From contig CAWITU010000002.1 in the NCBI GenBank assembly GCA_963839205.1, forward strand, positions 148,627 to 212,626: DNA of 64,000 bases, in the 5' to 3' direction. Source of the DNA: an uncultured bacterium. Its GTDB lineage: Bacteria > Patescibacteriota > Minisyncoccia > Phycocordibacterales > CAWITU01. Below, one piece after another: positions 35,743 through 51,895 of this stretch. The position numbers and the translations under genes were made by a program. Every line of letters starts with the position of its first letter. The stretch's first letter is position 1. The notes under the pieces were generated by a model. The model made no database searches, had not been told where the DNA came from, and saw only the letters and a list, made by a program, of their open reading frames with translations.

Positions 35743-35776
35743 AAAAGAGGCGGCCCTTTGGGCCGCCTCTTTTGTT
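35743..35776. terminator. bidirectional terminator between convergent genes
   Basis: AAAAAGAGGCGGCCC-TTT-GGGCCGCCTCTTTTGTT. Confidence 0.8.
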
Positions 35777-36344
35777 ATAAATTTGTCTTCAAATTAGAAG
35801 TTCTAAACCCTAATTTTTCTTTTGGTTTTTCTTCTTCCTGAATAAGTTGTCTCAGTGCCTCAAATACTATTTTAAATTGCCCATCATACTTCTGCTCTAG
35901 TTTTTCTATTTTATTTTGCAAATCTTTGTGAGAAAGGAGAAGCTCCCGAAGTTTACTAAAAATTCTCATAATTTGAATATTTACATTAATTGCCCTTTCG
36001 CTATTTAATACTGTAGAAAGCATGGCTACTCCTTGTTCGGTAAATGCAAATGGCAGTTTTCTTCGACCGCCATATTCAGTCAAACTTGATGTCGCAAATT
36101 GCGACTTCAAGTTTCGGTTTTCATCTTTAGTAAGTTGAAACATAAAATCTAGAGGAAATCTGGTCATGTTTCTTCTCACCGCTTCGTTTAACCTTCTGGT
36201 TTCAACTTCATAAAGTTCAGCCAAATCATAATCCAACATTACTTTTTGGCTTCTAATAATATAGATCTTATTGTTAATTTTACTTTCTATAGTTGTTATA
36301 CCTTGTGTCATCTTAGAATCATGGTTTTTCATGCCGGTATTCAA
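35775..36344 (-). CDS. ORF6N-domain protein (anti-repressor-like), paralog of 12371-12907
   Basis: IYIIRSQKVMLDYDLAELYEVETRRLNEAVRRNMTRFPLDFMF. Roughly half the residues are identical to the other copy by eye. Confidence 0.8.
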   Translation of the reverse strand: MNTGMKNHDSKMTQGITTIESKINNKIYIIRSQKVMLDYDLAELYEVETRRLNEAVRRNMTRFPLDFMFQLTKDENRNLKSQFATSSLTEYGGRRKLPFAFTEQGVAMLSTVLNSERAINVNIQIMRIFSKLRELLLSHKDLQNKIEKLEQKYDGQFKIVFEALRQLIQEEEKPKEKLGFRTSNLKTNL

Positions 36345-36435: not shown

Positions 36436-37243
36436 AACCATCACGACTGAATTATGTTAAAAACATCCAATTTTAAGCGGCCAAAATAACAGCTATTTTT
36501 AACTGTTGTCTTGAGAAGACCGCTAAAAGCGGTTTTTTTAATAACATAACCGACTGTAACTTGAAAAAATAATCCCGCAGCAACGTTCCCTTTTATACAA
36601 GGGGTCTTTAAGACGTTGAACAGCGGAAACAGGTAAATTCCAAACAGTAAGTTTGGAATAGTAGAATAAACAAAAAACGTGGTTTTTAAATATCCTAATA
36701 GGATATTAAGAGCGTATGGTGGATGCCTAGACTCCAAAGAGGCGATGAAGGACGTGGCGTAGCTTACGATAAGCTTCGGGGAGGTGCCTAGCAACCTTTG
36801 ATCCGAAGATTTCCGAATGGGGAAACCCCACTTGATTTAATTCAGGTGATCTCTTCGCAAGAAGAGGAGCAAACCCGGGGAAGTAAAACATTTCAGTACC
36901 CGGAGAAAAAGAGACTAATAAGAATTTCCTAAGTAGCGGCGAGCGAAAAGGAAGAAGCCCAAACTCAGCCTTCCTATAGAGGGCACTCGTAAACTCGTTT
37001 ACTCGAGTATGCGTCGTACACTCTATTGGGTGGCTGGGGGTTGTAAGGTGACAGTCGTATTTGATACAAAGAGTTACAAAATAATTCGTTAATAGAAAAC
37101 GCTGGAAAGCGTTGCCCTAGAGGGTAATAGCCCCGTACATGAAAATGAATTATCTCTAACTGTCATTCTTGAGTACTTCGAGACACGAGTGGCTCGGAGG
37201 AATCTGCCGGAACTAACCGGTAAGGCTAAATACTCTTGGAGAT

Positions 37244-37282
<39 letters not shown>

Positions 37283-38721
37283 GCCCGACGAGGGCAGTGA
37301 AATAGATCTGAAACCATACGTTTACAAGGTGTCGAAGAGGTGCTTGCACCTCGACGGCGTGCCTATTGAAGAATGAGCCAACGAGTTGATGCATATTGCA
37401 GACTAAGCCCGAGAGGGTGGAGTCACAGGGAAACCGAGCGTGAATAGCGCGTAAGTATTATGCATCAGACCCGAAGCCAAGTGAGCTTGTCATGTGCAGG
37501 GTGAACCAGGGAGAAATCTCTGGGGAGGCCCGAACCGGTAAGCCGTTCAATACTTTCGGACGACATGTGATAAGAAGTGAAAAGCTAATCGAACTTGGTA
37601 ATAGCTGGTTCTCTCCGAAATAGCTTTTGGGCTAGCGTCGGATGTTCCTCTTAGGGGTAGAGCACTGGAAGGTCTCGACAGGTCGAAAGATCGCGAGACC
37701 TATCAAACTCCGAATACTAAGAGTTAAGAATCCGGCAGTTAGACTGCGGGGGCTAAGCTCCGTCGGTCAAAAAGGAAACAGCCTAGATCTCAAGTTAAGG
37801 TCCCTAAATTTATGCTAAGTGCACTTAAGGCGGTGAAATTTCTCTGACACTGAGGAGGTTGGCTTAGAAGCAGCCATCCTTTAAAGAAAGCGTAACAGCT
37901 CACTCAGTAAGAGATTTCGCACCGAAGATAATCGGGGCTAAGCATAGTACCGAAACTGAGGGTTTATTTTGTCTTAGGACAAAGTGAGCGGTAGGAGAGT
38001 ATTCTAATCTGCTGTGAAGGTAAAGGGGTGACCCATACTGGAGCGTTTAGAAGTAAGAATGTTGGCACAAGTAACCACAATGCGAGTGAAAAACTCGCAC
38101 GTCGAAAGATCAAGGTTTCCTTGGCAATGATTGTCAGCCAAGGGTTAGTCGGGCCTAAGGGGATGGCGAACGCCGAACCCAATGGACACATGGTTAATAT
38201 TCCATGACTTCTTCATTTTCTGATGGAGTGACAAAGGTCAGTATTGTACGCGATTTATGGATTATCGTTATTGGATTAAGGGTGTTTTACAGGCAAATCC
38301 GTAAGACATAAGCCCAAGATCAGATAAAATGCTTCGCTTAGGCGAAGATAATGTACAAAAGCGGCCTTTCAAGAAAAGCTTCTAAAGATAAAAATGAAGG
38401 AACCGTACCGCAAACCGACACAGGTGATCAGCTCGAGTAGAGCAAGACGAACGAATGAGAGGTCCCCAAGGAACTCGGCAAAAAAGCAGCCGTAACTTCG
38501 GAATAAGGCTTGCCCTTTGTTAACTCAAAGGGCCGCAGCTAAAGTATCTCTGGCAACTGTTTATCAAAAACACAGCTCCCTGCGAACTCGTAAGAGGATG
38601 TATAGGGGGTGACACCTGACCAATGCCAGAAGGTCAAATATCGACGTTGATAGTAGCAATATTATTGGTGATTGATATAAGCCCTGGTGAATGTCGGCGA
38701 TAACTATAATCGTCCTAAGGT

Positions 38722-38956
38722 TCTCAACTGATTCTTTTTGAATGAGTTGAGAAGGACTGGGACGATCATAGGAAATGATAAATAGTTTTAATAATCAAAG
38801 TTAATTACACAAAAGCTACCTACAATGCAGTAATGTATTGTTAGTCCAATATGGTTAATAAGAGACCAACACCATACATCCTAAACAATTTTGCAACGGA
38901 CTTGTCCTCTGCGAAGTCGAAGGATGAAGATAGAGTCCAACTTGAAGGAATAGTTG
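38722..38956 (+). other. 235-nt group-I-like intron/IVS in 23S after U1931
   Basis: The flanks join to CCTAAGGT|AGCGAAATTCC (conserved sequence). The insert follows a T and ends in G. R/S-like blocks AAGAGACCAACA and AAGATAGAGTCC. No ORF. Confidence 0.65.
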
Positions 38957-39619
38957 AGCGAAATTCCTTGTCTGGTAAGTTCAGACGCGCACGAATGGTG
39001 TAATGACTGGAGAACTGTCTCGGGGACTTGTTCGGTGAAAATACAATACCGGTGAAGATGCCGGTTACCTGCAGTTAGACGAAAAGACCCCAGAAGCTTT
39101 ACTACAACTTGGTATTGAGGATATGTTTTTGATGCGTAGCATAGTGGTGAGACTTTGAAGTTTTGTTCTCGGATAAAATGGAGTCAACAGTGAAATAGCC
39201 ATCTTTAAAAATATATTTTCTAACCTCATCGGTAAAAACGGTGAGAGACAGTACCTGGCGGGTAGTTTTAGTGGGGCGCTATCCTCCTAAAGAGTAACGG
39301 AGGAGTTTATTAAGGTTAGCTAGGCGCGAATGGAAACCGTGCCGATAGTGTAATGGCATAAGCTAGCTTGACTGCAAGACGGATATGTCGAGCAGGTGCG
39401 AAAGCAGGACATAGTGAACCGACGGTCCGTATTAGATGCGGCCGAAGATTATCAGACAAAAGCTACTCTGGGGATAACAGGCTGGTTGCGCCTAAGAGTC
39501 CAAATCGACGGCGCAGTTCGGCACCTCGATGTCGGCTCATCATATCCTGGGGCTGGAGAAGGTCCCAAGGGTTTGGCTGTTCGCCAATTAAAATGATACG
39601 CGAGCTGGGTTCAGACCGT

Positions 39620-39916
39620 TCAGAATCGAATTTTTTCGGTTTTGGACCGTCTGAATCGTCGAGGAAATATTATTGTTGCGACCACGCAATATCTGTTAAC
39701 TTGTCCATCACGGCGGCCATAAGGAGAAATTCTTGTGTGCACAGCTGACTTATATCGGTGAATTCCACATTCTATGAAAAGAAGTGCGAGGACGCCTAGG
39801 GAAAATAAAACGAAATTTTATTGCCCGTAGAGACTAAACGTCAGCCATCTTCGTTTGAATTTATTCAAAACAGATGATTACATAGTCCATTCCACACAGT
39901 GATGTGTGAAAAGAAG
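39620..39916 (+). other. 297-nt group I intron in 23S after U2593 (peptidyl-transferase centre)
   Basis: The flanks join to GGGTTCAGACCGT|CGTGAGACAGGTT. The insert follows a T and ends in G. R-like GTAGAGACTAAACG (39827-39840) pairs via GACTA/TAGTC with S-like ACATAGTCC (39880-39888). No ORF. Confidence 0.75.
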
Positions 39917-39968
39917 CGTGAGACAGGTTGGTCTCCTATCTACTGCAGGCGTTGATTTTTGAGAAGAT

Positions 39969-39999
<31 letters not shown>

Positions 40000-40310
40000 T
40001 GACCTCTGGTGTGTCGGCTGTCCTGCCAAGGGCACTGCCGAGTAGCTAAGTCGGGAAAGGATAAACTCTGAAAGCATCTAAGAGTGAAGCCTACTTCAAG
40101 ATTAGAAATCGTAAGACCCGTAGGAGATGACTACGTTGATAGGCGCTAGGTGTAAGACAAGCAATTGTTTCAGCCGAGGCGTACTAATTGTCATTCCTAT
40201 TAGGAAATTTGGAAGTCACGCATTTGTTTATCGGCGCAGGCGAATATCAGTTGAAAAGGTTTTGCGCCACAGAATACCTGTTTAAATAAATTAAAGATCG
40301 AACGTTCAAT

Positions 40311-40419
40311 TCTGGTGATTTGGCGGAAGGGCAACACCTGTTCTCATTCCGAACACAGAAGTTAAGCCTTCTTGCGGCGATGATACTCTTTTGGAGGGGA
40401 AAGTAGCTAGTCGCCAGTA
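40311..40419 (+). rRNA. rrf: 5S ribosomal RNA
   Basis: TCTGGTGA..CCGAACACAGAAGTTAAGC..TCGCCAGT with paired termini, about 100 nt after the 23S. Confidence 0.9.
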
Positions 40420-49462: not shown

Positions 49463-49837
49463 ACCCCCTACGTCCTTAATGGGCGGTTCTTTGAAAATTA
49501 TCTGTCTAAAATCACGATTTATCTTGAATTTAGACAGATTGAAATATTGCCCTGTGTAGCTTTAGCGTAGAGCGGGTAGGACCGAGAACGTATTAACGCT
49601 CTGTATTGCCTCCTATCGAGCAGCTATGGAGGGAAAACGTGCAAGTCAATTAAAATATTTTTTTGTTCTCCCGCGGAGCTCGTCAGAGCAAAGTGGGAGT
49701 AAATAATTCCAAAAACAATGATCAATTGTTGGATGAGCTAGGATCAAACTTGTTGGTGAAATATAAATTTAGATTAAGTACTATTTTTTATTTTGCCTCA
49801 TTCTAATAAATATAAGTATTTATACTTTTTATTTAAT

Positions 49838-51324
<1,487 letters not shown>

Positions 51325-51493
51325 TGAATACGTCTCACGTTCTTCGTAAGAAGGGCGTGGGGCTGACAGTGTCGATGTTGCGGGTTCCAATTGGACTCAC
51401 AACGGATAATGATGAATAATCCTTAAAAATCATTGGACATTTGGGAAAGACCAGAAAATAAAGAATGAGGCAAAATAAAGGATGGTACTGAAT

Positions 51494-51524
51494 AGAGAGG
51501 GCGGCCCAAAGGGCCGCCCTCTCT
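51494..51524 (+). terminator. terminator after the 16S trailer
   Basis: AGAGAGGGCGGCCC-AAA-GGGCCGCCCTCTCT. Confidence 0.75.
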
Positions 51525-51819
51525 TGCTATTTGTATAAGTTTATGATATAATCCTTAGACAAATAAACATTAGCCTACTTGAAAGGGGGTGTAGGGCATT
51601 GATCAATAATGAAACAAGTACTCCAGAAATAAGAATCTAGAGGATGAAATTCGTCCTTATGGTTCTCCTATCTCCCTTCGTGGTCTTTACGGTGTGGGCA
51701 ATCGCTTGCACGTATCATGAGTCTCTACAGGAGATAGGGAGTCGAGCCGGCGTGGAAACATTCGCGCCGGCTCTTTCTTTTTCCTGCATCTTTTGTTATC
51801 TTAAGGAAGCTTCTTTTGC

Positions 51820-51895
51820 GCGCGCATAGCTCAGTTGGTAGAGCATTCGACTGATACTCGAAAGGTCCTAGGTTCGAACCCTAGTGCGCGCACCA
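51820..51895 (+). tRNA. tRNA-Ile (anticodon GAT), CCA encoded
   Basis: Manual cloverleaf: acceptor GCGCGCA/TGCGCGC, D arm GCTC-AGTTGGTA-GAGC, anticodon loop CTGATAC, T arm CTAGG-TTCGAAC-CCTAG, ACCA. Confidence 0.9.

Follow-up and report, generated by a model that had tools for sequence, protein, structure and literature searches.

The analysed stretch of DNA, referred to here as the window (64,000 nt in its entirety), carries a single visible copy of the 23S rRNA gene on the plus strand (36696-40204), followed downstream by a 5S gene (40311-40419, plus strand), and the 16S gene (49834-51324, plus strand) is not linked to the 23S gene. The 23S-5S block (36696-40419) lies 9.4 kb upstream of a 16S-tRNA-Ile block (49834-51895) on the same strand, with protein genes such as those for FtsW/RodA and a glycosyltransferase in between, and a gene for an ORF6N-domain protein (35775-36344, minus strand) is located directly upstream of the 23S gene. 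The window is densely packed with bacterial genes and includes tRNA-Leu(CAG) and tRNA-Pro(CGG). Its 23S sequence is 78-82% identical to Paceibacterota/Patescibacteria loci versus 69% to E. coli, and the downstream FtsW/RodA gene occupies the same position as in Patescibacteria loci with inserts at site 2593, both comparisons being biased by a reference set that comprised only loci picked for having such an insert. These features make it probable that the host is a Patescibacteria (CPR) bacterium. A chloroplast origin of the stretch was ruled out by the bacterial gene density, the two tRNAs, and the best 23S identity, which is to Patescibacteria MAGs. Compared with E. coli, about 106 extra nucleotides are present near 23S position 288 (36978-37083), which appear in the Rfam alignment as expansions of 53 nt and 16 nt in two helices with no intron signal; this segment may be an expansion or an intervening sequence.

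The 23S gene is interrupted by a 297-nt insert at 39620-39916 (plus strand), which a preliminary description made from the sequence had placed after U2593. The conserved block GAGCUGGGUUCAGACCGU breaks off at 39619/39620 and continues as CGUGAGACAGGUUGG from 39917, and the exon flanks, once joined, read GAGCTGGGTTCAGACCGT|CGTGAGACAGGTTGG. The placement is borne out by these joined flanks, by the bacterial LSU covariance model, which jumps 301 nt at the insert, and by a pairwise alignment with E. coli rrl, in which the insert follows position 2591 of a 2902-nt copy; since the numbering of that copy, as read from the printed sequence, runs 2 below the standard, the site corresponds to U2593, and the insert falls exactly between U2593 and C2594, the insertion site of the L2593 lineage. 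The flanks do restore the conserved block, as had been stated, but A2590C is not the sole difference from E. coli: U2586C is also present, and the block has CAGGTTGG where E. coli has CAGTTCGG. Likewise as first read, the insert is preceded by T39619 and ends in G39916. The splice boundary has only one possible placement: the intron begins with T and the 3' exon with C, the 5' exon ends in T and the intron in G, and any shift would therefore alter the mature 23S sequence. On either side lie the 5' exon end (G2581-U2593, 39607-39619, plus strand) and the start of the 3' exon (C2594 onward, CGUGAGACAGGUUG, 39917-39930, plus strand). The insertion point is situated in the peptidyl-transferase centre, within the conserved 7-bp stem of helix 93 and not at the helix tip.

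A local search with the general group I model of Rfam (RF00028, Intron_gpI) matched 39693-39909 over the full model (1-253), with a score of 38.1 bits and an E-value of 2.5e-8. The covariance-model check that had been proposed earlier is thus passed by E-value and missed by the curated gathering cut-off of 50 bits, at which the insert received no RF00028 report. The whole intron family lies just below this cut-off, because five relatives at site 2593 score 33-49 bits in an Rfam scan of seven loci; the published survey of CPR introns, according to its available text, likewise relied on E-values for the Rfam group I model (PMC11270868). Folding of the intron with short flanks gave a z-score of -6.2. 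The full-length match, together with homologous introns at the same site and covariation of the core including P7, sustains the earlier assignment to group I. The 23S gene has another insert, 235 nt long (38722-38956), between CCUAAGGU and AGCGAAAUUCC at site 1931. Preceded by U and terminating in G, it has no obvious ORF and gives a weak RF00028 match (23.7 bits, E 3.8e-4); its initial hairpin is followed by AGGAC, the complement of exon GUCCU. This insert is probably a second small group I intron.

The Rfam alignment and the MFE fold were used to name the core structure of the 297-nt intron, which was evaluated in an alignment of 30 intron cores (alignment A1). In this alignment, the named structure (P2-P9, including the P3/P7 pseudoknot) is paired in 96.3% of cells, compared with 34-41% when the partner strand is slid by 1-3 columns, and the covariation score is 0.459 versus 0.07-0.11 for the slid controls; compensatory changes occur in 28 of the 45 pairs, and the observed values were matched by none of 500 shuffles. 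The conserved core of P3-P8, P4-P6, and the P3/P7 pseudoknot is therefore maintained by compensatory changes. On the plus strand, it begins with the P2 hairpin (39717-39739), which is capped by a GAAA tetraloop (39726-29) and shows compensatory changes in all six pairs, followed by the 5' strand of P3 (GCUGAC, 39744-39749), which pairs with 39840-39845 and varies in a compensatory manner at 6 of 6 pairs. The P4-P6 domain consists of P4 (39755-60/39793-98) enclosing P5/P5a (39763-73/39780-90) within 39755-39798, and of P6/P6a (39799-39826), in which GGG pairs with CCC (P6, 39799-801/39824-26) and AAUAAAA with UUUUAUU, both elements being drawn from the fold and the alignment. The segment 39827-39845 contains J6/7, the 5' strand of P7 (GACUA, 39832-36), and the 3' strand of P3 (GUCAGC, 39840-45). 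P8 (39846-39876) is formed by CAUCU/AGAUG (39846-50/39872-76) and an inner stem (39854-59/39864-69), with compensatory changes in 5 of 5 pairs, and is followed by the 3' strand of P7 (UAGUC, 39883-39887) and by the P9 hairpin (39893-39908, CACACA-GUGA-UGUGUG), which has a GNRA loop and compensatory changes in 5 of 6 pairs. The R element GTAGAGACTAAACG (39827-39840) and the S element ACATAGTCC (39880-39888) were located correctly in the preliminary description, and the P7 that it had proposed (GACTA/TAGTC, 39832-36 with 39883-87) is 100% paired in the alignment, with A-U/G-C and U-A/G-C switches at two pairs; P7 crosses P3, as the group I pseudoknot requires. Features relevant to subgroup assignment are the presence of P2, a short P5, GNRA loops on P2 and P9, and the absence of P7.1/P7.2. 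The sole irregularity in the window core is the C39756 x U39797 mismatch in P4; no other sequence of the 30 is unpaired there. It is a lineage trait and not a sign of decay, given its recurrence in L130, a relative from a metagenome. The idea that J5/4 of the window intron has lost 3 nt was rejected, because the P4/P5 register is instead off by a single pair and leaves a 2x2 AA/GA internal loop.

The intron belongs to a large group of inserts at the same position. A scan for GAGCTGGGTTYARAMCGT with any base except C after it, which covered each prokaryotic species with one genome and chose loci by insert presence, gave at least 120 loci with a base other than C after U2593, and at least 92 loci carry inserts of 213-840 nt at site 2593. 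Among the matches listed, 91 of 92 such inserts have G as their last base, corresponding to the omega-G that G39916 represents in the window, and the boundary of the one exception (L010) was apparently mis-set by the scan; the hosts, again among the matches listed, are mostly Patescibacteria MAGs, along with Acidimicrobiia, Omnitrophota, and others. By blastn, the window intron core matches dozens of these inserts (best E 4e-14, for L018; also L078, L110, and L108), and the relatives can be aligned end to end, which establishes RNA homology with the L2593 lineage. Two types of intron are found at the site. Type 1 starts with AAAUUACAUUGCGUUC or similar, is about 730 nt long, or 280-380 nt in ORF-less copies, and has an ordinary P1 beside the splice site. 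Type 2, with about 60 loci among the matches listed, including the window, usually starts with U-N-A-G, is 213-840 nt long, and has its guide far inside the intron. Type-1 introns that start with AGAUCACACUGCG or AAAUUACAUUGCG occur as a form of about 735 nt with a LAGLIDADG gene and as a short form without it; the short inserts (282-379 nt; L027, L035, L063, L068, and L103) come from related Acidimicrobiia and other MAGs, and the coexistence of the two forms looks like repeated endonuclease loss. The smallest family members are L006:5201-5413 (minus strand, 213 nt) and L057:5800-6045 (minus strand, 246 nt), which we take to be among the smallest group I-like introns encountered; the former retains the exon-binding strand, the guide UACGGCGG, and P3-P8, and its 3' end is reduced. 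Other size variants include a 560-nt member on a metagenome contig (L129:439-998, minus strand), whose P6 region contains a GC-rich ORF of about 65-70 aa without apparent resemblance to a LAGLIDADG protein, and a 507-nt member with a different P6 insert (L123 and L127). In metagenomes, an exact 31-nt pattern of the window intron found no match, and a core-pattern search recovered 9 more relatives, none near-identical to the window copy. Eight loci (L001, L012, L046, L049, L079, L096, L098, and L111) have no insert and naturally carry U at 2594 (CGU-UGUGAGAC or UGCGAGAC); the occurrence of U2594 in some archaea and a few bacteria indicates that C2594 is not universally conserved.

The window copy encodes no endonuclease. 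The longest ORF within the insert is 40 aa, on the minus strand, and tblastn with the endonucleases of two relatives found no endonuclease remnant in the window, in agreement with the initial reading of an intron without endonuclease; no Pfam match was obtained for a mechanical ORF (39368-39748) that runs across the junction within the rRNA gene. Relatives that do encode an endonuclease, for which a search at the same 23S site had been suggested, were found: those of 700-840 nt, in both types, encode proteins of 143-206 aa with a LAGLIDADG_1 domain. One such endonuclease aligns over its full length with I-CreI (E-value 1.5e-20), I-MsoI, and I-CvuI; for the long relatives as a set, the E-values against these three enzymes range from 1e-14 to 1e-33, again over the full length. 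The single-motif LAGLIDADG gene of these relatives has no counterpart in the window copy, and the empty tblastn result implies that the latter is an ORF-less form of the I-CreI-site intron. With no endonuclease gene of its own, the intron has no independent mobility; its inheritance has presumably been vertical.

A candidate internal guide, UCACG|GCGG (39708-39716, plus strand), adjoins P2 on its 5' side, 89 nt into the window intron. UCACG (39708-12) is complementary to the 3' exon CGUGA, forming a predicted P10, and GCGG (39713-16) is complementary to the 5' exon CCGU (39616-19), forming a predicted P1 in which U2593 is in a wobble pair with G39713 and which P10 directly adjoins. A contiguous P10|P1 guide exists at one site in the intron and appeared in 147 of 20000 shuffles (0.7%), and CACGGCG is invariant and immediately 5' of P2 in all 30 sequences of alignment A1. 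In one relative (L029), the guide motif is located 9 nt from the splice site and gives a conventional P1 with U·G. The guide P1 of the window intron is only 4 bp long, with A2589 opposite C39717, and it is beyond the reach of the covariation test because the exon bases are invariant. Further upstream, UAACUUGUC (39697-39705, plus strand) pairs with the 3' exon GACAGGUUG (2599-2607) in the MFE fold, with a duplex energy of -15.8 kcal/mol compared with -11.1 +/- 2.8 kcal/mol for shuffles, and similar pairing is seen in about half of the relatives; a role as an extended P10 is a weak possibility. The fold also contains a peripheral 7-bp hairpin with an ACCA loop (39674-39691, plus strand), whose TTGCG-ACCA-CGCAA portion (39676-39689) had been likened to a reduced P4-P6. 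This comparison does not hold: the true P4-P6 lies at 39755-39826, and the hairpin is a variable element of the P1 loop upstream of the guide, in a region between the exon-binding strand and the guide that ranges among relatives from nearly absent to more than 100 nt; it is missing in L006, L075, L090, and L108.

At the 5' junction, the sequences GACCGTTCAGAATCG (39614-39628) and GACCGTCTGAATCG (39645-39658) form the direct repeat that had been noticed without explanation; the repeat itself is real, but its second copy begins 26 nt into the intron and not about 35 nt as had been estimated. The 52 nt from 39607 to 39658 fold into a single hairpin (-30.2 kcal/mol, z -7.8) of 23 bp, 12 exon bp and 11 intron bp, in which exon G2582-U2593 is paired with ACCGUCUGAAUC (39646-57). 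The second exon-binding strand as a whole, ACCGUCUGAAUCG (39646-39658, plus strand), can pair with exon G2582-U2593 except at C2591, where C faces C, and the apical hairpin (39620-39645, plus strand), in which intron bases 1-11 pair with bases 16-26 (39635-45) around a UUUU loop, stacks directly onto the exon-intron helix in the MFE fold. The direct repeat is the two strands of this near-palindromic, conserved exon-intron hairpin: both strands read GACCGU because GAC-C-GUC around the central C x C mismatch is self-complementary. A target-site duplication, or any other repeat at the DNA level, was rejected, as the second copy is the complementary strand of the hairpin, with many G·U pairs.

Conservation of the hairpin was assessed in an alignment of 60 relatives (alignment A2), where the exon-pairing site was picked by best complementarity. 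The helix is 89.9% paired in these relatives, a value whose exon half leans towards pairing because the site was chosen by complementarity and whose intron-intron half is unaffected by this choice. The latter half (columns 14-25/30-41 of A2), which was not used in locating the site, covaries strongly. Exon and intron also covary with each other: exon position 2588, which is G or A, faces intron C or U in 37 G-C, 21 A-U, and 2 G-U pairs, with none of the 60 relatives unpaired. The frequent G·U pairs indicate that pairing takes place in the RNA of the plus strand. Opposite U2593, the hairpin has A in 51 of the 60 relatives and G in 9, and C2591 is unpaired in 46 and C2590 in 11. The hairpin thus holds the splice site in a pair other than a wobble, and its weakest part coincides exactly with the four bases of P1. 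It is read as an auxiliary or alternative helix and not as the catalytic P1, because U2593 faces A and C2591 is usually mismatched.

The opposite assignment would make the long 5' hairpin the catalytic P1, with cleavage after the U2593-A pair and CACGGCGG serving only for P10 or a tertiary contact. Several observations favour it: the stability of the hairpin far exceeds that of the 4-bp helix, its pairing is conserved and covaries, and a purine capable of pairing is always found opposite U2593. The assignment is nonetheless improbable. Group I introns almost universally cleave at a U·G wobble, and this assignment would mean a U-A pair in 85% of relatives; it also leaves the systematic weakening at the P1 bases unaccounted for, and it conflicts with L029, which uses GCGG directly and has no hairpin. 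In addition, the P10 strand is contiguous with GCGG and not with the hairpin strand, so that only GCGG gives the canonical side-by-side alignment of the exons. A one-base shift of the splice site that would create a U·G in the long hairpin was also rejected, because it would make C the last intron base or lengthen helix 93, and the first intron base also differs among relatives. We favour the GCGG guide as the catalytic P1, since it is the only guide contiguous with P10, the only one that gives U·G, and the one used by the relative without the hairpin.

If GCGG is the catalytic P1, the two pairings of the 5' exon must be reconciled. A nested energy model puts the cost of forcing P1 at about 19.5 kcal/mol compared with the long hairpin, which suggests that the pairings are alternative states or that they coexist as a pseudoknot in which the clamp, i.e., the exon-binding strand of the hairpin, holds 2582-89 and the guide holds 2590-93. 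It is conceivable, though on balance doubtful, that the CPR L2593 family uses two exon-binding elements, a minimal guide and a P1-loop clamp that acts as a switch or exon holder. Under such an arrangement, the guide would provide a 4-bp P1 and a 5-bp P10 from a position 60-300 nt into the intron, and the clamp would bind 12-13 exon nucleotides, be weakened at the four P1 bases, and form a pseudoknot with P1 in the active state. The clamp could prevent misfolding of the helix 90-93 strand or time splicing relative to ribosome assembly. We know of no earlier description of a dual exon-binding arrangement in group I introns.

A further possibility is that the insert is a decayed group I intron that has lost self-splicing and is either cut out by host RNases, leaving a fragmented 23S, or retained in the mature rRNA. 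The RF00028 score below the Rfam cut-off, the C x U mismatch in P4, the very short P1 in competition with a much more stable hairpin, and the lack of an encoded endonuclease or maturase could all be taken as signs of such decay. Each of the first two, however, loses weight within the family, as the window score falls inside the range of the relatives and the P4 variant recurs in the independent relative L130, and all core helices are intact, with the guide and the terminal G conserved. Moreover, the insertion splits the stem of helix 93 beside A2602, where retention is expected to be very harmful to the ribosome. Published cases point both ways: the title of reference 28 in PMC11270868 reports a 23S group I intron of Simkania that remains unspliced, whereas the available text of that paper, citing Brown et al., describes CPR rRNA inserts as removed from transcripts. 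Decay is accordingly considered quite unlikely. Still less credible, to the point of being nearly dismissed, is a non-intron origin as an expansion segment or RNase III-type intervening sequence with group I-like motifs: short non-intron inserts do occur in bacterial, including CPR, 23S genes (PMC11270868, available text) and 106 additional nt are present near position 288 of the gene studied here, but the insert splits the conserved 7-bp stem and does not replace a helix tip with a simple extended stem, and it combines a full-length covariance-model match and a full group I core, nine covarying helices including the P3/P7 pseudoknot, a terminal G together with a guide sequence, and endonuclease-bearing homologues at the same site.

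The insert is thus best explained, with a probability of about 0.88 on the sequence evidence, as an ORF-less group I intron of the L2593 CPR family with a standard core and guide-based P1 and P10. As judged from the family, its RNA would adopt the P3-P8 and P4-P6 domains, the P3/P7 pseudoknot, and GNRA-capped P2 and P9. GCGG would bind exon CCGU and present U2593 in the U·G wobble of P1, and UCACG would bind the 3' exon CGUGA as P10. Free guanosine would then attack after U2593, the terminal G39916 would take the place of the guanosine in the P7 pocket, and ligation of the exons would restore helix 93. The P1 loop would be large (88 nt) and contain the second exon-binding strand, apparently a family-specific feature, and the long hairpin would hold the 5' exon and open locally at the four P1 bases upon invasion by the guide. 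The preliminary conclusion that the ribosome of this organism depends on splicing at its catalytic centre is a reasonable inference, given that its only visible 23S gene is interrupted there, in addition to the second small insert at site 1931; functional ribosomes very probably need RNA splicing in this organism. As an instance it adds little, because splicing-dependent 23S rRNA is already established as a general trait of Patescibacteria. The anatomy of the family, with its distant guide, covarying exon clamp, and members down to 213 nt, could interest RNA specialists, as a source of small natural ribozymes and as a case in which competition between exon pairings can be tested.

Introns at this site have been published for several lineages. 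In the available text of Tsurumaki et al. (J Bacteriol 2024, PMC11270868), group I/LAGLIDADG introns are described as recurring at position 2593 of CPR 23S genes and as clustering around the peptidyl-transferase centre, and the first notice of CPR 23S inserts is credited to Brown et al. 2015. These introns resemble the window intron in site, host group, and detection by Rfam E-value, and LAGLIDADG_1 ORFs are present in part of the copies, unlike in the window copy; no description of RNA secondary structure, a distant guide, or an exon-pairing hairpin was found in the available part of PMC11270868. In cyanobacteria, L2593 introns are documented in Synechococcus C9, S. lividus C1, and Thermosynechococcus (Haugen et al. 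2007, PMC1995217, available text). They share the site and the group I class with the window intron and are linked to single-motif LAGLIDADG genes, but they are about 745 nt long, all with a full endonuclease gene, in contrast to the 297 nt of the window copy, and they have a short P2 and an extension of about 65 nt comprising P7.1/P7.2 (PMC1995217). In Patescibacteria, group I introns of tRNA genes are described as self-splicing in vitro in the available text of PMC13011429, and no description of a distant guide combined with an exon-clamping hairpin was found in the available parts of PMC1995217 or PMC13011429.

Structurally, the window intron differs from the cyanobacterial L2593 introns in that the 3' strand of P3 runs straight into P8, without P7.1/P7.2, and in its large structured P1 loop. 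The chloroplast introns of I-CreI, I-MsoI, and I-CvuI are linked to the present family through their enzymes, which resemble the endonucleases of the long relatives of the window intron at the protein level. Their insertion site is presumably also 2593. Chloroplast 23S introns such as Cr.LSU of Chlamydomonas reinhardtii, which we take to belong to subgroup IA3, encode an endonuclease, unlike the window copy. As site-2593 introns in CPR, cyanobacteria, and chloroplasts have already been published, the distant guide and the exon clamp are the only part with some novelty. For the competition between exon pairings, the nearest parallel is the Tetrahymena rRNA intron, in which Woodson and Cech reportedly described an alternative 5' exon pairing, P(-1), that competes with P1. 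In both cases, a stable helix of the 5' exon competes with a short catalytic P1; the Tetrahymena competitor is formed within the exon, whereas that of the window pairs exon with intron, is much longer (12 exon and 11 intron bp), lies in the P1 loop, and covaries across the family.
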